A stretch of DNA of 64,000 nt from Myxococcota bacterium (GCA_965247115.1 CBDFGR010000003.1:451867-515866); one strand, 5' to 3'. Shown: positions 13,617-23,028, counted from the stretch's first letter. The notes: generated from the letters alone by a model not told the origin. Numbers and translations: made by a program.

Positions 13617-14117
13617 ATGGCACTGCTCGTGGATGGAAAGCTGGTGGACGACCCCTGGCTCGTCCCGGGAGACGAGGACGATCTCCCTGCGGGCAAGCCC
13701 ATCGTCGTGAGCCTGAGCCGCTGGCAGGCCGAGCGCGACACTCTTGTCGGGCGCGAGGCGGGTCTGGGGATTCGGCTGCGGAGTGACGAGTCGCCGGCGC
13801 AGATCGCCGACGCTGTCGAACACTTCGAGCTGATCGAGCTCGAGTTCCCCGCCTTCAAGGATGGGCGCGCGTACTCGTATGCGCGCCTGCTCCGAGAGCG
13901 CTTCGGCTACCATGGAGAGCTGCGCGCGGTGGGAGACGTGCTGCTCGAGCAGCTCCTCTTCATGCACCGCTGCGGCTTCAACGCCTTCGAGATCGATAGC
14001 CAGAACGCTCTCGACGACTGGGTGACGGCGACCTCCGAGATCAGCGTCTGGTACCAGCCGACCGCTGACGGTCAGGCGACAGCGCTTCAGCTGCGCCGCT
14101 CGCGAAGGGGCGTCTAG
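13617..14117 (+). CDS. DUF934 protein (sulfite-reductase-associated).
   Basis: 166 aa; immediately downstream of cysI; FPAFKDGRAYSYARLLRERFGY pattern typical of DUF934. Confidence 0.65.
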   Translation: MALLVDGKLVDDPWLVPGDEDDLPAGKPIVVSLSRWQAERDTLVGREAGLGIRLRSDESPAQIADAVEHFELIELEFPAFKDGRAYSYARLLRERFGYHGELRAVGDVLLEQLLFMHRCGFNAFEIDSQNALDDWVTATSEISVWYQPTADGQATALQLRRSRRGV

Positions 14118-15073
14118 CCGGGCGCGTCGCAGGCGATCGCGATCTGATCGCGGCCGTGGCGCTTCGCAAAGTAGAGGCCCTCGTCCGCCAGCTGGATCAC
14201 GCCCTGCCAGCGCCACTGGGGCTCCTCGGGCGAAGCGCTGGCAACGCCGCAGCTCACGGTCACGATGCCGTGCGGCGACTCCTCGTGGGGAAGCTCGAGG
14301 CTGCGTACCCCCTCGCAGATTCGCTCGCCGGCCCGAGCGGCCTCGACCCTGATGGTCTCGGGAAGCAGTACCAGCAGCTCCTCGCCACCAAAGCGGAACA
14401 CCTGGTCCGCGCCGCGCAGTACGTCTACCAGCCGTCCCGCGATCTTCTTTAGCACGCGGTCGCCCGCGAGATGGCCGTAGTGATCGTTGTAGAGCTTGAA
14501 CAGGTCCACGTCGCAGAGGGCCAGCGAGTAGGGCACGTTTTCGCGTTGCAGCTGTTCATGCACCCTGGTCAAGCTCTCTTCCATCCAGCGGCGGTTCCCG
14601 ATGCCGAGCAGCCCATCGAGTCTGGCCAGCTTGTCGAGACGCTTGTTCGCGGTGGTCAGATGCACAGTGCGTTCTTCGACCAGCTCCTGCATCAGGCGTC
14701 GGCTCAGCAGATCGCTCTGCGCCACTACGCCGAGCAGCCGGCCGTCACCGTCCACGACGGGGAGATGACGAATCGACACGCTCTGCGCGAGCGAGGCGGC
14801 GTCTTCCAGGTTGTCGGTCGAGCGGATGGTCGTGACGGGAGACGACATCACCTCCTCGGCCAGCCTCCGGTCCTCCTCGCCCGCCAGCGCCCTGGTTGCG
14901 ATCGCGACCGCGTCCCGCTCCGTGATCATGCCGATCGGAACCTGACCCTCGCAGACCGGAACACAGGACACGCGGTTCTTGTGCATCTTCTCCAGGACCT
15001 CGGCGAGGGTGTCCTCTGGCTCCGCACAGAGGACGTCCTTGGTCATGATGCTTTCGATGTTCCCGTAGCCCAT
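14114..15073 (-). CDS. Diguanylate cyclase: CBS-pair domain plus GGDEF domain.
   Basis: Two CBS motifs (VLCAEPEDTLAEVLEKM..., PVTTIRSTDNLEDAASL...) followed by a GGDEF domain with active site RFGGEEL and DVDLFKLYNDHYGHLAGD. Confidence 0.9.
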   Translation of the reverse strand: MGYGNIESIMTKDVLCAEPEDTLAEVLEKMHKNRVSCVPVCEGQVPIGMITERDAVAIATRALAGEEDRRLAEEVMSSPVTTIRSTDNLEDAASLAQSVSIRHLPVVDGDGRLLGVVAQSDLLSRRLMQELVEERTVHLTTANKRLDKLARLDGLLGIGNRRWMEESLTRVHEQLQRENVPYSLALCDVDLFKLYNDHYGHLAGDRVLKKIAGRLVDVLRGADQVFRFGGEELLVLLPETIRVEAARAGERICEGVRSLELPHEESPHGIVTVSCGVASASPEEPQWRWQGVIQLADEGLYFAKRHGRDQIAIACDAPG

Positions 15074-15256: not shown

Positions 15257-15661
15257 ATGCAGCTCGCCTACAAGACTCTGTGTTGGATCGTGGGCAGCCT
15301 GATGGTGCTGCTCGGGCTCTGGTTCGTCGGTCTGTTCGTCGTCTCGATCGCGCCCGGCTCGAGCTCACCGCTGCCCTTTCCAATCGGTCCGCAGGGCTAC
15401 TACTTCGTGGCCTTCTCCGGCTCTTGCCTGGTGGCGTGGGGATTCTGCCTGTTCGGCGCGGCCCGAGGCCACGGCGACCGGGCGATTGGCTCGGCCACGG
15501 CCATCGGCCTGTCGCTCGCTGCGATCAACCGGATCGTCGTCTGGCTGTTCGGGGACTTCTGGTGGGTGGGCGGCATGCCTCGACTGGAGGCGATCGGCCT
15601 GTTGACCCTCGCCCTCGTCTTCGTCTGGCTGCGACCTCCAGCCGGCAGGGGAGACCCATGA
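15257..15661 (+). CDS. Small integral membrane protein (4 TM helices).
   Basis: Coding-like frame (C-terminal part of the 14471 ORF) MQLAYKTLCWIVGSLMVLLGLWFVGLFVV...; the stop overlaps the next start (ATGA). Confidence 0.5.
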   Translation: MQLAYKTLCWIVGSLMVLLGLWFVGLFVVSIAPGSSSPLPFPIGPQGYYFVAFSGSCLVAWGFCLFGAARGHGDRAIGSATAIGLSLAAINRIVVWLFGDFWWVGGMPRLEAIGLLTLALVFVWLRPPAGRGDP

Positions 15662-16260
15662 TAGGACGCAGCCTCGCAACGCTCGTGATCGGTGGCATTC
15701 TCGGGCTGACTCTGGCGCTCCCCTACACAACGATGGGTCGACGAGGGAGCGAGGCGGTAGTTCGGCGGGACGTACCGGGAGCTGTGGGGACGGTCGGTGA
15801 GCGCCTGCCCCAGCTCTCGTTGCAGGACCTCGAGGGGAACCCCGTTTCGCTCCGAGACTTTCGTGGCGAGCGCGTGGTGCTGACTTTCGAGCGCAGCCTC
15901 GACTGGTCCCCCTTCAGCAAGGCGCGCCTCATCGAGCTACGCCAGCAGATCGACAGTGCGGAGGACCTCGTACTGCTCTACGTGATGGCCGACAACCAGC
16001 TCAACCAGAAGACGCGCTTCTTCATCGACGGAAACCGCCTGACGGACCGTGTGACCTTTCTACAGGACCCGTTCAGCGCATCCATCGACCGACTGGGCTT
16101 GCGCCGCCCGACTCCTCGTGCGCTGGAGACCGGAGTCCCCCACCCCTCGACCTACGTGCTGGACCGCGGCGGCATCGTCCGCTTCGTCGATGTCCGCGAG
16201 GACTACCAGATCTGGCTCGACTCCTCGCTCGTACTGGAGGCTGTCGCAGAGATCCCCTAG
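15658..16260 (+). CDS. Membrane-anchored thioredoxin-fold (AhpC/TSA-like) protein with no Cys at all.
   Basis: N-terminal TM helix, then ...NPVSLRDFRGERVVLTFERSLDWSPFSKARL aligning to the peroxiredoxin FYPLDFTFVCPTEL region with Ser at the peroxidatic Cys position. The protein contains zero Cys. Confidence 0.5.
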   Translation: MIGRSLATLVIGGILGLTLALPYTTMGRRGSEAVVRRDVPGAVGTVGERLPQLSLQDLEGNPVSLRDFRGERVVLTFERSLDWSPFSKARLIELRQQIDSAEDLVLLYVMADNQLNQKTRFFIDGNRLTDRVTFLQDPFSASIDRLGLRRPTPRALETGVPHPSTYVLDRGGIVRFVDVREDYQIWLDSSLVLEAVAEIP

Positions 16261-19200
16261 CGGCGGCAGAGCCACTTCCTGCCCCTCTGCCAGGATACCT
16301 TGTGGCGCTCCACCTTCTTGTGAACCACGTGCTTGTGGACCTTCAGCAGATGCGCTCGGAGGTGAGGAGCGTGCCGGTGGAAGATCCGCCTCACGTGCAC
16401 ACGAACGTGCGGGGGCAGGCGCTTGACGACGCGCCTCAGGTGAGCCCTGACGTGGCGGAGCTTCCGGTGCTGAGAGTGCTTTGGCTTGTCGCACACGGCC
16501 CTCGCCGCTCCAGGAACGCTGAGCTCCGGATTCTCCCGTAGCAGCGCACACAGCTGGTCACGCGAGCAGCCTGTCCCCTCCTTCTGAGTCTCGCTCAAAG
16601 GGGTGTCGGCGCACAGATCCGCCCCGTCGGCAATCCCGTCGCCGTCGTCATCGTCGTCGCAGGGGTCTCCGGCCCCGTCTCCGTCGAAGTCTCGCTGATC
16701 TGGATTGGGGACCAGGGGACACGTGTCCGCCACGTCGTCGGTCCCATCGCCGTCGTCGTCCGGATCACAGGCATCGCCCAGCTTGTCGCCATCGGTATCC
16801 GTCTGGTCGGCGTTCGGGTCGTCGGGGCAGTTGTCCCCTGCGTCAACGACGCTGTCACCATCCGAGTCGTCGCAGACGTCTCCGAGGCTGTCGCCGTCCA
16901 CGTTGGCCTGATCCGGGTTCGCCAGGTCTCGACAGTTGTCCACAGCGTCGACCACTCCGTCGGCGTCGCTGTCGTCACACACATCGCCCAGCTTGTCGCC
17001 ATCGAAGTCGGCCTGATCCGGGTTCGGCGTGTTCGGGCAGTTGTCGACCTGAGCGTCGAACAGGTCGTAGACCCCGTCTCCATCTGCATCGGCGCCCGCG
17101 ATCATCGAGATCGCGGAGAAGTGGGTGACCTCTGCCATGCAGGTCGCGAGGACCCCTGCTTCGTCCTCCACGAGCTCGCACATCGATCCAGGGACGGCCT
17201 CGAAGCTGCTCCCGTCCTCTCCGATCGGCTGATAGAGGGCCAGGCTCGCCCTCTGGCTCGGGTGGAGAGCCGTGACGTCCGCCACGATGGTCACCTTGAC
17301 CGGGGCGTCGAAGATCAGACCGTCGGGCTGCAGGTCGTAGACCGCGACTTGCAGCCCGAGCGCGAGGGTCGGACTCAACATCAGGTCAACAACACCGCCG
17401 GCAGCGCCGGAGCTTACGGAGATCGTCGCGCCGGCCACGAGATCGCCTGCCTCCACGTCGAGCAGGAAGCCGTCCGCCGTTACCTGACCCACGGCGCCGG
17501 GTGGAATCTCCGCCGCACCCTGTCCGTTCGGATCGCAGGTATCCAGGTCGTCGCCGGGGCATGGGTCACAGACATCGCCGACGAGATCCCCATCGAGGTC
17601 CGACTGCGCGGGATTCACCACGTCGACGCAGTTGTCACCGGCATCTGGAACGCCGTCACCATCTGCATCCGCCTCTCCCTCACACGCGTCACCGACCCCG
17701 TTGCTGTCCGCGTCCTCCTGTCCAGGATTCGGATCGTCGGGGCAGTTGTCCTCGACCGGGGCGAAGAGGTCGAAAACGCCGTCGCCGTCCGTATCTGCGG
17801 GAGCCAGCAGCGCGAACCGCGAGAAGCCGCTCACGCTTGCCTCGCAGACGAGGCCGGCCTCGTCCTCGAAGCAGAAGCCGTCCAGGGGCACGAAGGCGTT
17901 GGCCCCAACATCGAACTGGTAGAGACCGAGAGCCTGCTCCTGGGCGAAGCTCAGACCAAGAGAGAAGATGTCCGGGAAGACCGTGAGAGACGCTGCGTTT
18001 GTAAACTGAAGCCCGTCCGGCTGGAGATCGTAGCTCGCGATCAGCAGGCCGAGTCCAGGAACCGGGTTCGGCAAGTCCGACAGGTCTACAACTCCGCCCG
18101 CAACGCCCCTCGTGATCGAGATCGTGGCATCCGCGACGAGGTCGCCGGCGCCTACCCGCAGGGACACATCACCCGGCAGCGAAACTGTGCCGCCCACGTT
18201 CGCGTCGATCTCGCGGGCAGAGCCCGCGGTGCAAGCATCGGCCGCATCGCTCGGGCAAGCGTCGCAGACGTCGCCCGCGGAGTCCCCATCGACGTCGGAC
18301 TGGAGCGCATTCGAGTCGACCGGGCAGTTGTCCACGCCGTCCGGAATGCCATCGCCGTCACCGTCCGGCAGCTCACAGGCGTCGCCGACCCCGTCCCCGT
18401 CCGCATCCAGCTGCGCCGCGTTCGGAGTGTTGCTGCAGTTGTCGAGGGCGTTCGAGACGCCATCTTGGTCGTCGTCACAGGCGTCGCCGAGCCCGTCGCC
18501 ATTGGTGTCTGTCTGGGAAGCGTTGGCGTCGAGGGGGCAGTTGTCGAACGCGTCCTCGATGCCGTCGCTATCTGTATCCGGAGTGCAGGCGTCACCGATG
18601 GAATCGAAGTCCGTGTCCGCCTGGTTCGCGTTGCTGTCGAGCGGACAGTTGTCGACGAGATCATCCACAAGGTCCCCGTCGTCGTCCGCATCGCAGGCGT
18701 CCCCTTCGCCGTCTCCGTCCGTGTCGAGCTGCGTGGCGTTCGGCGTGGACGGGCAGTTGTCGTTGTCGGGAGCGCCATCGAGCACCCCATCGCCATCGTC
18801 GTCGCCGGGCAGCGCTCCGGGGAGAAAGTAGTCGAGCCCCTGGTGGGCAATCTGGAGGGAGGAGTCGATCTCGTCGCCATCACTGTTCAGATCTTCGCCC
18901 TGTTGGCCCTCGTTCACGTTGAAGACGAGAGCGCTGGCTGAGAGCTTGGACGCGGCTTCGAAGCCACTTCCGAGCGGTGCAGAGGCCACCATCAGATTCT
19001 CCAGATCGAAGGTGGCCGCATCGATCACGTGGACGACGTTGTCGCTCCTGTCGCCATCGAGGCCATCGAAGCCGTCGAGACCGTTCAGGCTCCCGTCGAG
19101 CAGAAGGTCGGTCGGTCCCTGGTGCTCCTCATTGACGAGGAAGCTGACGAGACCCCCTTTGAAGCGGAGCTCGGAAGCCGCGATGCCCATGTTCTCGAGC

Positions 19201-20666
19201 GCTCCCGTCCCGCGCTCGTAGATGTGAAGGACGGACTCGCCGAGCGTCTGGTCGAGATCCTGCGAGTGCCCGTAACGCGTTCCGAGGCCGTTCAGATTGG
19301 CACTCTGCGCGATCTCGGGAACCGCTACGGCCGCGCGGTCGCCTTCGACCTGATAGATCGGGCCGTCATCGAGCGCGACGCCCAGGGACATGAGCTGCAT
19401 CCCGGCGGCGGTGGAATCCCAGACGTGCAGGACATTGTCGTCGGTATCCAGATCCCCGTTGTGGTTCGTGCCCGCGGGGCCCTCGTCAGATTCGAGAACC
19501 TCAAAGACCACGAGCCCTGTCGCCGAAACCGAGAAAGGCTGGCGGGCCAGATTCTGGTTGGAGTTCCGCCCCACGTTGGCGAGCATCCCGGTCGAGCTAT
19601 CGAACACTTGAAGAACGTTGTCGAGCTGGTCCCCGTCGCCGTTCAGATCCGCGTTCGCCTTGGCGGGGGACTCCGAGGCCAGAAAAGCCACAACCTCTCC
19701 GCCCACGTCGTACTGAATTCCCTCCATACCAAGGTTTGTAGTCAGACCTGTCCGCGCATCGAAGACGTGGAGGATGTTGTCGAGTAGTCCGCTCGGCACT
19801 TCGAAAGCCACGACACCGAGCTCCGACAACGACAAGGCAGGCAGCGACGTACCGCTCCGCGTCCTCGTCGCGGCAATCCCGACGTTCATCCGCTGGTCCA
19901 GGGGCATGGAGAGGTCGTACACCTGCGGCACCAGATCGTCCGTGTCCCCGTCAGGGTTCAGGAACGTGTCGTCGTTCGCCTCCGATCTCAAGGTCACCAG
20001 GAAGTTCCCAGCCGCGCGCATCTCGCTGGCGTCGACGCCGGCATTGGTAACGATGTTTCTTGTGGGATCCGCGGGATCAGGACCGTAGACGTGAAGGACG
20101 TTGTCTACGGTATCCCCGTCCCCATTCAGATCGAGCCCCCCCTGGCCGGACTCCGAGACCGAGAAGACGACTCGGTCGTTCGCGAGCTGATACCTGTGGA
20201 GGGCGAGGCGGAGGTTTGTCGTGCGTCGAGTTGCGGGATGGAAGACGTGAAGGACTCGATCATCGGTATCCCCATCCCCGTTGAGGTCATTCCCTACACC
20301 GACGGGACCCTGGTCCATTTCGTAAACGGCAAACGCGGCGACGGTCGGTCCAACCAGGTAGCTGTCGATCAGGGTACTGTTGACCGGGGGCACCGACACC
20401 AGCGCCCTCGGCGAAATACGCAAGTTCAGCTTGGTGTCGCGCAGAAACGCGTACGCAACGTTGTCTGCGGAGTCACCGTCGCCGTTCAGGTCCGTGGAGG
20501 GGAAGTCGTCTTCACTGACGAGAAACACGACCAGATCGTCCGTGATCTTGAAGTCGGTGCTCTCCAGGCCGAGGCTCACTCCGACGGCAGACCGCGCTTC
20601 TGGAACAAAGCACAGCCAGAGCGCAAGCGCGCAGAGGGTGACTCGCCCGGAAACAAGAGAGCGCAC
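16257..20666 (-). CDS. Giant secreted Ca-binding repeat protein with N-terminal FG-GAP-like 'DLNGDGD' repeats, multiple TSP3 repeats and a basic His/Arg-rich C-terminal tail.
   Basis: Signal peptide MRSLVSGRVTLCALALWLCFVPEARSA. More than 8 DLNGDGD(T/S)xDNVLHV units. More than 20 TSP3-like units such as DTDGDGEGDACDADDDGDLVDDLVDNCPLDSNANQ. Two duplicated ~150-aa modules (GDLVADATISITRG.../GDLVAGATISVSSG...). Tail HSQHRKLRHVRAHLRRVVKRLPPHVRVHVRRIFHRHAPHLRAHLLKVHKHVVHKKVERHK. Confidence 0.8.
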   Translation of the reverse strand: MRSLVSGRVTLCALALWLCFVPEARSAVGVSLGLESTDFKITDDLVVFLVSEDDFPSTDLNGDGDSADNVAYAFLRDTKLNLRISPRALVSVPPVNSTLIDSYLVGPTVAAFAVYEMDQGPVGVGNDLNGDGDTDDRVLHVFHPATRRTTNLRLALHRYQLANDRVVFSVSESGQGGLDLNGDGDTVDNVLHVYGPDPADPTRNIVTNAGVDASEMRAAGNFLVTLRSEANDDTFLNPDGDTDDLVPQVYDLSMPLDQRMNVGIAATRTRSGTSLPALSLSELGVVAFEVPSGLLDNILHVFDARTGLTTNLGMEGIQYDVGGEVVAFLASESPAKANADLNGDGDQLDNVLQVFDSSTGMLANVGRNSNQNLARQPFSVSATGLVVFEVLESDEGPAGTNHNGDLDTDDNVLHVWDSTAAGMQLMSLGVALDDGPIYQVEGDRAAVAVPEIAQSANLNGLGTRYGHSQDLDQTLGESVLHIYERGTGALENMGIAASELRFKGGLVSFLVNEEHQGPTDLLLDGSLNGLDGFDGLDGDRSDNVVHVIDAATFDLENLMVASAPLGSGFEAASKLSASALVFNVNEGQQGEDLNSDGDEIDSSLQIAHQGLDYFLPGALPGDDDGDGVLDGAPDNDNCPSTPNATQLDTDGDGEGDACDADDDGDLVDDLVDNCPLDSNANQADTDFDSIGDACTPDTDSDGIEDAFDNCPLDANASQTDTNGDGLGDACDDDQDGVSNALDNCSNTPNAAQLDADGDGVGDACELPDGDGDGIPDGVDNCPVDSNALQSDVDGDSAGDVCDACPSDAADACTAGSAREIDANVGGTVSLPGDVSLRVGAGDLVADATISITRGVAGGVVDLSDLPNPVPGLGLLIASYDLQPDGLQFTNAASLTVFPDIFSLGLSFAQEQALGLYQFDVGANAFVPLDGFCFEDEAGLVCEASVSGFSRFALLAPADTDGDGVFDLFAPVEDNCPDDPNPGQEDADSNGVGDACEGEADADGDGVPDAGDNCVDVVNPAQSDLDGDLVGDVCDPCPGDDLDTCDPNGQGAAEIPPGAVGQVTADGFLLDVEAGDLVAGATISVSSGAAGGVVDLMLSPTLALGLQVAVYDLQPDGLIFDAPVKVTIVADVTALHPSQRASLALYQPIGEDGSSFEAVPGSMCELVEDEAGVLATCMAEVTHFSAISMIAGADADGDGVYDLFDAQVDNCPNTPNPDQADFDGDKLGDVCDDSDADGVVDAVDNCRDLANPDQANVDGDSLGDVCDDSDGDSVVDAGDNCPDDPNADQTDTDGDKLGDACDPDDDGDGTDDVADTCPLVPNPDQRDFDGDGAGDPCDDDDDGDGIADGADLCADTPLSETQKEGTGCSRDQLCALLRENPELSVPGAARAVCDKPKHSQHRKLRHVRAHLRRVVKRLPPHVRVHVRRIFHRHAPHLRAHLLKVHKHVVHKKVERHKVSWQRGRKWLCRR

Positions 20667-21000: not shown

Positions 21001-23028
21001 ATGATTCTGCCAGTCGGCCAGAGCGAGGTTCTGCGTGTGCCCTGGATCACCGGGTGGGTGATCCTTGCGTGCCTCGCGGTGTTCCTGGTCGATGACAGCG
21101 AGCTCGCCGTGCCCGCGTCGCCCGTACCGGAGCAGCTGGCGGAGGCAACGGAGTACTGGCGCGAGCACGCGTACCTCGAAGTCGAGCCGGAGATCCTGCT
21201 CGAGGTCGGGCGCGGCAAGTCCGCCGAAGAGCGGCGCGAGCTCGTACAGGAGCTGCGCTACGAGTCGTACCAGCGCTGGCCAAATGACGAGGAGATGCGG
21301 CGCGCGCAGCAAGAGGTGCTGGACTTCCTGGCCTCCCAGGCGCTGGGAAGGCTGGAGCAAGCGCCGAGCGCCCCGAGCATCTTCACGCGCTGGGGTCTGG
21401 TTCCGGCGGAGCCAAAGGCGCTGGCCTTTCTCACGCACCCGTTCCTGCACGCGACCTGGCTGCAGCTGCTGGCCAACCTGCTGATCCTGTTTCTGGCGGG
21501 CGCCGCGCTCGAGGAGCGCTGGGGACCGCTGCTCGCCCTGCTCTTGCCGATCTGCGCGGCTGCCTCTGGCGCTGTCGCGCTGCTGGTCTCGCTGGGGTCG
21601 ACGCTCCCGCTCTTCGGCGCGGCCGGCATGTCCGCCGGCCTCGTGGGCGCAGCGCTCACCCGCTATCGCCTGCAGAAGATCCGCTGCTACTACCTGCTCG
21701 GGGTCGATCGCAAGGGACCGATCCACGGCAGCTTCAGGCTGCCTGCGGTCGCGCTGCTGCTACCGCTCTGGCTGGTAGGCGCTGCCGGGCAGGCCTGGCT
21801 GCCAGGACTCAAGCTTGGCGCACTCTACGCGGCTCAACTGACCGGATTCGTCGTGGGAGCGGGGACGGCATTCCTGGTCGCGCGCCTGGACCTCGAGGAG
21901 CGGCTCGGCTTTCTGTGGCTTCGGGCATGGTGGGATCGGCAGCGGCTCGAGCGGGCGAGCCGACGCAAGGCAAAGCAAGAGGCGACTCGCGAGGGCGCGT
22001 CCGAGGTCGCGGCGCAGGAGCCAGAGACAACGTCCGAGCTGGATCAGCTGAAGGCCAGCGCCGAGGGCAACCCTGGAGATCCGGAGGTCGGGCGTACCTT
22101 CTGGGAGGCTGCACGCTCCGCAGGGCAGGCCGACCTGGCGGCTCCCCAGATGCTGCGCCTGGTGCACCACCACGTGAATCGTGGAGAGGACCAGGAGGCG
22201 GCGCGTACCTGGATCGAGGTCACGACGGAAGTGCCGCGAGCCCTCGCCTACCCGACGCTGCTCGTCAGGCTCTGCCCGGCGCTGATCGAGCTGGGAGAGC
22301 GGGACCAGGCCCAACGAGCACTCCGCCAGGCCATCGATCCGCGCAACCGGGGCCTGACCCTCCCGAACGTGATGCGCGCCCTCCGCTATGCCAAGGAGCT
22401 CGACCCGGCGCTCTGCGTGGCTGCGGCGAAGAGAGCCCTCGAGATGCCCGACGTGCCGGCCGACCAGCGCGCCTCCCTCAGGGAGCTGATCGACGCCGGG
22501 CAGTTGGCGCCGCCGGCGGCACCCGGCCCACCGACCCCGGCGATCGGGGTGGAAAGCCAGGCCCCGCCAGCCGCCGCGGACTCTTCGGCAGGCGGACCGC
22601 GTTTCAGCGGCGTGAAGATCGTGGAGGGGACGCCTGCGCGTCTGAGCCGCGCCGGACTCTTCATAGAGGTTGCGGCGGGTCGGATGATCGAGCTCAAGTA
22701 CGCCAGGGTCGAAGCTCTCGCGGCGGCCATGGTCGTGCGCAGTCTCGGGCAGAGCCCGGAGGTGGTGATCGACCTGGCACTGAACTGGAGCCACGTGGGA
22801 GACGAGGCGCTGCGCATCGTTCGCCTGCGCAGCGACGGCTTCGACCCCCGCACCCTGATCTCTGACGAGGAGAGCCTGGAGGATGCCTACCGGGGCCTGC
22901 TCGACAAGCTCCTCACCCTGACGCGGGCGATCCCCCTGCCCGACGAGGAGTCCGCGCGCGGCCGACCGATGCGCGTGTTCTCGGACCTGGAGACCTATCA
23001 GCGCGAGGTGCTCGAAGTCGCAGGCTGA
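21001..23028 (+). CDS. Rhomboid-family intramembrane protease-like protein with a ~350-aa C-terminal soluble extension.
   Basis: Multi-TM core with GAAGMSAGLVGA (rhomboid GxSG-like) and later helices, then a hydrophilic Ala/Leu-rich extension. Confidence 0.5.
   Translation: MILPVGQSEVLRVPWITGWVILACLAVFLVDDSELAVPASPVPEQLAEATEYWREHAYLEVEPEILLEVGRGKSAEERRELVQELRYESYQRWPNDEEMRRAQQEVLDFLASQALGRLEQAPSAPSIFTRWGLVPAEPKALAFLTHPFLHATWLQLLANLLILFLAGAALEERWGPLLALLLPICAAASGAVALLVSLGSTLPLFGAAGMSAGLVGAALTRYRLQKIRCYYLLGVDRKGPIHGSFRLPAVALLLPLWLVGAAGQAWLPGLKLGALYAAQLTGFVVGAGTAFLVARLDLEERLGFLWLRAWWDRQRLERASRRKAKQEATREGASEVAAQEPETTSELDQLKASAEGNPGDPEVGRTFWEAARSAGQADLAAPQMLRLVHHHVNRGEDQEAARTWIEVTTEVPRALAYPTLLVRLCPALIELGERDQAQRALRQAIDPRNRGLTLPNVMRALRYAKELDPALCVAAAKRALEMPDVPADQRASLRELIDAGQLAPPAAPGPPTPAIGVESQAPPAAADSSAGGPRFSGVKIVEGTPARLSRAGLFIEVAAGRMIELKYARVEALAAAMVVRSLGQSPEVVIDLALNWSHVGDEALRIVRLRSDGFDPRTLISDEESLEDAYRGLLDKLLTLTRAIPLPDEESARGRPMRVFSDLETYQREVLEVAG

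Follow-up and report, generated by a model that had tools for sequence, protein, structure and literature searches.

We describe here a gene in a 64,000-nucleotide (nt) stretch of DNA from a Myxococcota bacterium (GCA_965247115.1, CBDFGR010000003.1:451867-515866), referred to at its full length as the window, that encodes a 1469-residue protein carrying two copies of a predicted ZU5/GAIN-B module. Microbial GAIN-B-like domains, such as that of B. subtilis YfkN, have been named MAIN, for Microbial Autoproteolysis INducing (Brogan & Rudner, May 2026 preprint, bioRxiv 10.64898/2026.05.12.724683). One copy in the protein retains an intact H-F-S site and is predicted to cut the chain, the other has lost the histidine, and the protein ends in a conserved His/Arg-rich tail. 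Considering the protein as a whole, we lean, with modest conviction, toward a self-cleaving, anchor-tailed adhesin of an uncultured bacterium, extremely acidic, exported by Sec, binding Ca2+, and located at the surface or in the matrix; it is called the adhesin below.

Gene and domain layout

The first-pass annotation of this stretch had placed a 1469-aa open reading frame (ORF) at 16257-20666. The coordinates and the length are correct, but the strand was not: the gene lies on the minus strand, and a plus-strand reading of the interval gives a translation full of stops. GC content at third codon positions (GC3) is 0.7-0.93 across the whole frame, with the tail included and the last 90 codons covered. 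Antisense and out-of-frame ORFs of up to 606 aa overlap the gene, for example at 17121-18941 on the plus strand; they have no family matches, and such long antisense ORFs are a usual by-product of the 65% GC content. Three orthologs were compared, namely P0001 (93% identity), P0002 (60%), and P0003 (45%). A Myxococcota-like host, as proposed earlier from the sequence, agrees with the label "Myxococcota bacterium" on contig L004, which carries an ortholog of the P0002 lineage. From the N-terminus to the C-terminus, the layout of the adhesin is as follows.

16257..20666, minus strand: whole coding sequence, 1469 aa plus stop (GTG start at 20666, TAG at 16257-16259)
20586..20666, minus strand: signal-peptide-like N-terminus, residues 1-27 (MRSLVSGR-VTLCALALWLCFV-PEARSA, read from the sequence)
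18831..20585, minus strand: ~ten-bladed β-propeller, residues 28-612 (internal repeats, homolog consensus, AlphaFold2 (AF2) model, Foldseek)
18228..18830, minus strand: thrombospondin type 3 (TSP3) array 1, residues 613-813, five repeats and a Cys-rich junction (Pfam PF02412, DNC motifs, fragment BLAST)
17796..18227, minus strand: predicted ZU5/GAIN-B ("MAIN"-type) module A, residues 814-957 (hidden Markov model (HMM) envelope, AF2 model, Foldseek)
17526..17795, minus strand: TSP3 array 2, residues 958-1047, two repeats (Pfam, DNC motifs, fragment BLAST)
17091..17525, minus strand: predicted ZU5/GAIN-B ("MAIN"-type) module B, residues 1048-1192 (HMM envelope, HFS site, family statistics)
16641..17090, minus strand: TSP3 array 3, residues 1193-1342, five repeats (105-nt tandem period in the DNA)
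16491..16640, minus strand: Cys-containing linker, residues 1343-1392 (DGIADGADLCADTPL...GCSRDQLC...AVC)
16260..16490, minus strand: His/Arg-rich basic tail, residues 1393-1469, 77 aa (charge, conservation, ratio of nonsynonymous to synonymous substitution rates (dN/dS))

The duplicated module

A duplicated ~150-aa module between the TSP3 runs had been recognized in the first-pass annotation and left unexplained. Both copies are indeed found, at residues 814-957 and 1048-1192, and they correspond to an autoproteolytic domain of ZU5/GAIN-B type in which an H-F-S site is conserved. Three motifs hint at ZU5/GPS: an N-terminal "L.V.aGDL..DaTISv", a central "YDLqPDGL.F..Pv.vTi", and a C-terminal "C....V(T/S)HF(S/T).f.vlA". 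The AF2 model of module A, made from an alignment of 8 sequences, is all-beta with a predicted local distance difference test (pLDDT) score of 88 and a predicted template modeling score (pTM) of 0.81; module A alone was modeled, and module B is placed in the fold by its 41-52% identity to module A (fragment-versus-whole BLAST). In a Foldseek search of the PDB with the module A model, the top 13 matches are all ZU5 domains (ankyrin 3f59, 3kbu, 4d8o, and 3ud2; UNC5b 3g5b), with E-values of 3e-5 to 9e-4, query TM-scores (TMq) of 0.61-0.64, and a probability of 1.0, followed by the GAIN domains of CD97 (9mqr), BAI2 (8oek), and BAI3 (4dlo) at E-values of 1e-3 to 6e-2. By modeled fold and motif, the module is thus predicted to belong to the ZU5/GAIN-B β-sandwiches, a class already known for its structure and function.

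The site H1182-F1183-S1184 of module B is intact (codons 17115-17123), and its predicted scissile bond is F1183|S1184. The corresponding site of module A reads G947-F948-S949 (codons 17820-17828), with the catalytic His gone, and lies between the last two modeled strands (124-133 and 136-142); judging from this substitution, module A probably no longer cuts and would serve as an inactive spacer. Ortholog P0001 shares the GFS of module A (NGFS), and P0002 and P0003 keep HFT there, which indicates that the His loss is recent and lineage-specific. The duplication itself is old, because both copies are present in P0002, in P0003 (locus L003), and in the distant relative P0269. No paralogs of the module or of the propeller were found elsewhere in the 64-kb window.

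When 1.84 billion cluster representatives were searched exhaustively with HMMER, 1039 proteins of the module family were returned at E ≤ 1e-3, of which 240 remained at ≤ 1e-10 and 121 at ≤ 1e-30. Among 148 aligned copies from the top matches, the site is HFS in 118, HFT in 10, HLS in 6, GFS in 6, SFS in 5, and something else in 3, so that HF[ST] is near-invariant in the family (128/148); by position, the His is kept in 135/148, the Phe in 142/148, and an S/T/C nucleophile in 148/148. Two conserved Cys lie upstream of the site. Nine of 26 relatives, far more than for any other family, match Pfam ZU5 weakly, with a best E-value of 1.4e-4; the module of P0125, for example, matches it with an E-value of 1.1e-3 and 19.6 bits against a cutoff of 21. 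A word-indexed protein search with the module gave 4 matches, dominated by TSP3 words.

Members of the module family with a named source come from Myxococcota and Planctomycetota. Their heads are varied and include FGE-sulfatase, GLUG, DUF5122 propeller, FG-GAP_2, CARDB, MopE, and beta-helix domains, and a TSP3-like turn, "APLD(S/T)DxDG", almost always directly follows the module. Their C-termini include IPTL-CTERM (TIGR04174, above cutoff, in P0159 and P0165), ends with a transmembrane (TM) segment plus basic residues (14, by a crude test), dockerin-like repeats, a FIMAH domain, and, in 15 members, an unannotated "NHGxFVSCV..." C-terminal domain. A recurrent post-module C-terminal domain of this NHG/VSCV kind, for which no Pfam or NCBIfam model was found, was seen in P0121, P0124, P0128, P0133, P0163, P0168, and P0183 in two forms, "C..TP....GCS..Q.CPC....W.NHG.YVSCV....GLI......AAQS.CGKK" and "C..SDL..T....C.TGV.N.....GC...D.I..C....NHG.FVSCV...".

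The C-terminal tail

The tail is present exactly as it had been quoted earlier. It consists of three ~15-aa units, HVRAHLRRVVKRLPP / HVRVHVRRIFHRHAP / HLRAHLLKVHKHVVH, followed by KKVERHKVSWQRGRKWLCRR, and its 77 residues include 17 His, with a repeated H-x-x-x-H spacing (HVRAH, HVRVH, HLRAH). Hydrophobic residues occupy unit positions 2, 6, 9, and 13, and the helical hydrophobic moment is 0.58-0.74 in the first two units. Because no 18-residue window has a positive mean Eisenberg hydrophobicity (maximum -0.01), the tail holds no TM segment, and for the same reason the type of end formed by a TM helix plus a short basic cluster was rejected. The last 64 aa carry a net charge of +20 with 11 His, and the rest of the mature protein carries -231.

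Purifying selection acts on the tail. It is kept in P0001 and P0002, and its last 45 residues are ~91% identical between the window and P0002 at 60% identity for the whole protein. Comparison of the window with P0002 by the Nei-Gojobori method gives a dN/dS of 0.29 over the tail as a whole, 0.18 over its last 45 codons, and 0.07-0.50 in other regions; dS of the tail (0.37-0.41) is somewhat below that of most of the gene (0.5-2.4). In the cluster defined at ≥90% identity, 13 proteins extend to the C-terminus, each from a separate assembly, and every one of them carries the tail in frame; together with the same frame in the 60% ortholog and the low dN/dS, this contradicts an origin by frameshift, which had been raised earlier. 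Nor is the tail a frameshifted version of the relatives' C-terminal domain, as the other two frames lack the canonical "W.NHG.YVSCV...AAQS.CG", and it is not constrained by an overlapping gene, as the convergent AhpC gene overlaps it by 4 nt only.

The possibility of a known sorting signal was likewise not borne out. Models for MYXO-, PEP-, IPTL-, and GlyGly-CTERM, the T9SS C-terminal domain, and LPXTG returned 0 families at E ≤ 0.1 for the C-terminal 124 aa, and the tail matches no NCBIfam/TIGRFAM sorting model; the same search did find IPTL-CTERM in the relatives P0159 and P0165. Compared with Pfam, NCBIfam, and the PDB, the tail has no match, and the sequence search of the PDB gave only a non-significant one (E-value 1.2), in which the partner is the basic extension at the C-terminus of ribosomal protein L4. 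The Cys linker that precedes it has a clearer ancestry: its first 32 residues (DG..DGAD.C..TPL.......GCS..QLC) are homologous to the start of the relatives' C-terminal domain (hhalign probability 95.8%, columns 1-32 only), and hhalign found no homology of the tail itself to the remainder of that domain. A literature search on His-rich basic tails yielded nothing useful.

A word-indexed protein search with the tail returned one match, a deletion variant of the P0002 lineage. P0122 (163 aa, on a contig of 2601 bp), a variant of the P0002 lineage, has an internal tail deletion (…KEPDVVHKKVQRLKVSWQKGRKWLSRR) and a scrambled TSP3-linker junction, and is either an assembly artifact or a natural deletion allele. 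A genome scan with the tail alignment found the P0002 lineage only, together with a spurious TSP3 match in a Poseidoniales archaeon, and a scan of JGI metagenomes with the tail found nothing. Ortholog P0003 carries an Arg/Ile/Leu version of the tail (KRLRHIRVLERLIQRLPPRIRTRVQRIF) with one His in the readable part; in this assembly of 4x coverage, a frameshift within module B interrupts the protein (L003 5500-6700). The partial P0269 (L006 1-1589, MEE9281143.1, from a Myxococcota metagenome-assembled genome) shares with the adhesin the layout ZU5-TSP3-ZU5-TSP3-Cys linker, with HLS at both sites, and ends in a different, Glu-interspersed His/Lys/Arg tail (…KHRELHKKFVKNAVKRHLKKVKHHRKKAERHEDAERHH…) with a charge of +17 and 13 His in its last 60 aa, so that composition rather than sequence recurs at the tail position. 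The neighbors of P0269 (LplA, DsbA, a phosphodiesterase, and PolB-exo) have counterparts in L001 and L002, where they lie upstream of the adhesin. An antisense ORF within the adhesin gene (17300-17983, plus strand) is itself His/Arg-rich; because spurious ORFs of the window yield similar His/Arg strings, composition alone proves nothing, and it is conservation that carries the argument for the tail.

The N-terminus, head, and TSP3 arrays

The sequence anatomy bears out the earlier description of a mosaic protein of Ca-binding type whose N-terminus is signal-like. Residues 1-27 contain two Arg, the hydrophobic core VTLCALALWLCFV, and then PEARSA, and P0002 keeps the hydrophobic core together with "WLCFVPEAxSAVGV".

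Residues 28-612 hold ten units of ~55 aa, each with a DxNxDGD Ca-type loop; DLNGDGD is strict in four (at residues 59, 127, 179, and 340) and degenerate in six, in line with the "eight or more" units of the first-pass annotation. The unit consensus from 33 homologs is vAFxVxE..QG.DLNGDGDxxDxVLHVxD..TG..TNLG. The AF2 model from the 33-homolog alignment (pLDDT 85, pTM 0.85, 37 strands) gives a propeller, as had been anticipated. The best PDB match in Foldseek is the ten-bladed Vps10p domain of sortilin (E-value 3e-10, TMq 0.44-0.51); propellers of tricorn, TolB, and S9 peptidases rank next, and no integrin appears among the top 50 matches. Because no Pfam family matches residues 27-625 even at E ≤ 10, and with it no FG-GAP, FG-GAP_2/3, VCBS, or PD40, the propeller is not a member of the FG-GAP family, contrary to the "FG-GAP-like" label it had been given; the fold is nearest that of sortilin Vps10p. 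A seven-bladed FG-GAP/integrin-alpha propeller was also rejected on the count of ~10 units, the 37 strands, and the sortilin-like best match.

The only Pfam family matched by the whole protein is TSP_3 (PF02412), with 212.8 bits against a cutoff of 25, an E-value of 3e-64, and 12 stretches. The repeats number 12, of which 10 are DNC repeats and 2 are variants, arranged 5+2+5. The Asp-rich DxDxDGxGDxCDNCP motif with its paired Cys is present, arrays 1 to 3 holding 11, 5, and 10 Cys, and on the behavior of the family these repeats are expected to bind Ca2+ and to depend on it for folding. The "more than 20" TSP3 repeats counted earlier are not supported by either the Pfam stretches or the DNC count; probably each Asp-rich half-motif had been counted separately. 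The NCBIfam matches of the whole protein are limited to MtsC-like and Omp28-like TSP3 matches. The equivalog NF047638 (MtsC) scores 318.9 bits against a cutoff of 350, and of the 428 positions in this profile the best stretch takes in 81-265, the TSP3 region only.

Genomic neighborhood

Three genes in the vicinity of the adhesin are listed here.

21001-23028, plus strand: rhomboid-family protein, 675 aa, divergent from the adhesin gene (rhomboid domain at residues 141-294)
15280-16260, plus strand: AhpC/TSA gene, converging on the tail
14114-15073, minus strand: CBS-CBS-GGDEF diguanylate cyclase gene, two genes downstream of the adhesin (position kept in L001-L003)

The rhomboid-family protein also has weak rhombosortase-like and YbgF/TPR-like matches. 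The order rhomboid/adhesin/AhpC recurs in L001, L002, and L003; because the whole neighborhood is syntenic in these loci, the shared order says nothing about function. A functional link between rhomboid and adhesin is not supported, as the synteny is limited to close relatives in which the whole neighborhood is kept and the tail offers no TM segment to cut. A link of the CBS-GGDEF gene to surface-protein biology through cyclic di-GMP is conceivable. The stops of the adhesin and AhpC/TSA genes share the palindrome CTAG (16257-16260), so that the two genes overlap by 4 nt without any spacer. Neither strand shows a terminator-like hairpin at this junction, and no terminator-like or promoter-like sites were found in the tail region. 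Immunity and sortase-like genes are absent next to the adhesin.

Proposed mode of action and alternatives

The adhesin would follow the plan known for ZU5/GAIN-B ("MAIN") proteins, in which a signal peptide, a binding head, a self-cleaving module, and an anchor succeed one another. The ~10-bladed propeller with its DxNxDGD loops would form the head, and the twelve TSP3 repeats would act as Ca-stiffened spacers. After Sec export, and by analogy with its family, module B would probably cut at F1183|S1184 and leave the head held non-covalently and releasable by force. In the turn that precedes the last strand, the His would assist attack by the Ser side chain, with an N-to-O acyl shift. Because that strand (SAISMIA) would remain inserted in the sandwich after the cut, a head of ~1156 aa (propeller, seven TSP3 repeats, and module A) would stay on a stub of 286 aa (five TSP3 repeats, Cys linker, and tail) until shed by force or denaturation. 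We infer a surface location for the protein.

Several findings weigh against this scheme. Searched separately, the modules of the window, like the propeller, match nothing in Pfam or NCBIfam, with no Pfam ZU5 (PF00791) or GPS match at E ≤ 10, and sequence searches of the PDB with module profiles of 5 and 26 sequences returned 0 matches. The nearest solved structures, the ZU5 domains of ankyrin and UNC5b, are non-cleaving protein-binding domains, the active-site position is read from modeled strand boundaries only, and module A lacks the His. No secretion-system genes lie adjacent to the adhesin. With respect to the tail, searches of 5.8 billion proteins, GTDB genomes, and JGI metagenomes returned no further relatives beyond a narrow clade, and L003 carries a 98-nt deletion after KRLRHIRVLERLIQRLPPRIRTRVQRIF that removes the last ~33 tail codons (the last third), although this deletion and the L003 frameshift may reflect an assembly error or a decaying gene. 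In addition, the C-termini of family members were sorted by crude regular expressions, with 111/146 classed as "other" or truncated contigs, and the predicted stub is still acidic, with a charge of -52 in its TSP3 array against ~+24 in the linker plus tail.

One could instead regard the modules as non-catalytic ZU5 scaffolds, used for protein binding or as spacers as in ankyrin, UNC5, and ZO-1, with the protein remaining a single chain. This would fit the non-cleaving nature of the top Foldseek matches, the GFS in place of HFS in module A, and the lack of a significant sequence match of the window modules to cleaving ZU5/GPS models. However, the retention of H-F-[S/T] in 128/148 copies and of a nucleophile in 148/148 is hard to explain without catalysis, and microbial HFS domains of the same fold cut at F|S in vitro and in vivo (bioRxiv 10.64898/2026.05.12.724683), which makes a purely structural role unlikely.

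For the tail, polyanion or metal binding and anchoring, all suggested earlier, are conceivable roles, and its position lends indirect support to anchoring. An electrostatic surface anchor is our best guess, because the tail sits where related proteins carry anchors (IPTL-CTERM, TM-plus-basic, dockerin-like, and others). Going by this position and its composition, we tentatively propose that it may hold the stub on anionic surface polymers, binding lipopolysaccharide, exopolysaccharide, or extracellular DNA by charge, with its 17 His possibly conferring sensitivity to pH or metals. A tail that is mainly a metal (Zn, Ni, Cu) or pH element, with HxxxH pairs on short helices and a charge switch near pH 6, seems to us rather improbable. 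The His content with its repeated spacing speaks for such a role, as does the independent tail of P0269, in which 13 His fall within the last 60 aa and His content thus appears more conserved than sequence; however, there is no match to metal-binding families, Arg and Lys are equally prominent and repel cations, and the readable part of the L003 version (KRLRHIRVLERLIQRLPPRIRTRVQRIF) has one His. Alternatively, the tail might act on the protein's own acidic TSP3 repeats, either in cis as a charge latch or folding aid or in trans as a Ca-dependent matrix cross-link. The charge asymmetry (+20 versus -231) invites this idea, and in the few proteins that have the tail it is always accompanied by long TSP3 arrays. 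Loading with Ca2+ would neutralize much of the TSP3 charge, though, and as the argument is purely inferential we give the latch or cross-link a low probability, below that of a metal or pH element.

Two further accounts of the tail fare worse. In polymorphic toxins, ZU5 acts as a releasing autopeptidase (PMC3482391), and a cationic tail with a helical hydrophobic moment of 0.58-0.74 in its first two units could be imagined as membrane-active cargo delivered to other cells. This toxin-like interpretation is disfavored by the lack of an immunity gene, the adhesin being followed in the window, as in every orthologous locus, by the convergent AhpC/TSA; moreover, the tail is conserved rather than polymorphic, five TSP3 repeats separate it from the cut site, and no toxin domain was matched in Pfam or NCBIfam, so that we consider it very unlikely. 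The tail could also be a functionless read-through or out-of-frame relic, as His/Arg strings arise easily in wrong-frame GC-rich DNA. Comparable stretches do occur in spurious ORFs of the window, homologs of the tail are confined to a narrow clade, and in L003 it is truncated. Against this stand the dN/dS of 0.18-0.29 at 60% protein identity, which is the main reason for disfavoring a neutral relic, the conservation of the tail above the protein average, its intact retention in 13 independent assemblies, the absence of the canonical C-terminal domain from the other two frames, and the in-frame GC3 of 0.8-0.93. Given these data, we regard a relic as highly improbable.

Implications

The class of the module (ZU5/GAIN-B/MAIN) is already published. 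What is new is a Pfam-invisible, TSP3-linked sub-family in diderm phyla, the tandem occurrence in one chain of a copy predicted to be active and a degenerate one, and a conserved His/Arg tail in the anchor position. Assigning the module to this class yields a specific prediction, namely self-cleavage at F1183|S1184, for which the probably inactive sister copy provides a natural internal control. It would also carry the MAIN design beyond the wall-anchored proteins of Gram-positive bacteria, into diderm Myxococcota and Planctomycetota with their TSP3-rich proteins, and would add tandem modules as well as a sub-family that current Pfam models miss and that comprises at least 1039 sequence clusters. 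The His/Arg tail is a candidate for a new electrostatic or pH-sensitive mode of attachment. A much bolder version, which we think doubtful, is that the tail is an undescribed pH- or metal-switchable, non-covalent diderm anchor that replaces sortase, SLH, or CTERM signals, that the TSP3-linked module family of at least 1039 clusters, found in at least Myxococcota and Planctomycetota, marks a large uncharacterized class of force-releasable surface proteins of Gram-negative bacteria, and that tandem modules allow two-stage or regulated shedding.

Comparison with known systems

Several known proteins resemble parts of the adhesin. The MYXO-CTERM protein MtsC (NF047638), on which a literature search found nothing useful, shares with it the long Ca-type TSP3 arrays of a myxobacterial-type secreted protein, whereas the adhesin differs in head and tail, has no MYXO-CTERM, and scores below the cutoff of the model. 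Sortilin Vps10p, TolB, and tricorn provide the best fold matches to the head, in that it is a large single propeller of about ten blades; however, the sequence identity is only 8-9% at a TMq of ~0.45-0.5, and the adhesin lacks the 10CC module. The blades of sortilin are not known to carry the DxNxDGD loop.

With the GAIN/GPS domains of adhesion G-protein-coupled receptors and polycystin-1, the modules would share a logic in which self-cleavage at H-hydrophobic-S/T occurs in a beta-turn and the last strand holds the fragments together. Unlike these domains, the modules of the adhesin have no helical GAIN-A subdomain and no seven-transmembrane partner, and the TM-scores of module A to GAIN structures are 0.49-0.53 compared with 0.61-0.64 to ZU5. 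The local sequence C....V(S/T)HF(S/T)xFAVLA also resembles the GPS consensus, C.C.HLT.FAVLM, and this resemblance serves only as a lead.

The ZU5 domains of animal proteins and polymorphic toxins are closer, as they are the best structural matches and give the weak Pfam ZU5 matches among the relatives. In animals, such domains are found in PIDD1, UNC5CL, and the FIIND of NLRP1/CARD8, and non-cleaving forms occur in ankyrin, UNC5B, and ZO-1; PIDD resembles the adhesin in having an HFS site and two ZU5 copies in one protein. The adhesin differs in lacking a UPA domain, death domain, RHS, SpvB, or toxin-immunity pair, and its modules would be extracellular rather than cytoplasmic, with the window copies below Pfam detection. 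Zhang et al. 2012 (PMC3482391) brought ZU5, GPS, and the Nup98 autoprotease together as autopeptidases and reported ZU5 alongside adhesion modules in "large bacterial cell surface proteins".

The closest parallel is with the MAIN proteins. In these, HFS is cut between F and S in vitro and in vivo, replacement of the Ser by Ala abolishes cleavage and Thr rescues it, and the fragments remain stably associated (bioRxiv 10.64898/2026.05.12.724683). The domain has been annotated by structure, under the ECOD group "ZU5/Nup98-C/GAIN-B" with templates 3g5b and 4dlo, and a near-universal order of signal peptide, adhesion or enzymatic domains, MAIN, and cell-surface anchor has been reported (same preprint). 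The adhesin shares the ZU5/Nup98-C/GAIN-B β-sandwich predicted for its modules, with H-F-S in the turn before the last strand, the fold search with module A returned the same two templates, and its overall form is likewise that of a large secreted protein with a signal peptide-like N-terminus, adhesion domains, the module, and a C-terminal region. TSP_3 and one Myxococcus protein are listed in the tables of the preprint, but its main text makes no mention of TSP3, Myxococcota, Planctomycetota, or tandem modules and frames MAIN as mainly Gram-positive (bioRxiv 10.64898/2026.05.12.724683). The host of the adhesin, in contrast to the Bacillota emphasized there, is diderm and Myxococcota-like, cleavage is predicted for it, and its chain carries two modules interleaved with TSP3 repeats, one of them degenerate (GFS). 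The signal-like N-terminus and ectodomains of the MAIN-type architecture are present in the adhesin, and where a recognized anchor would be expected it has, instead of a sortase signal, SLH domain, or cell-wall anchor, the basic His/Arg tail.

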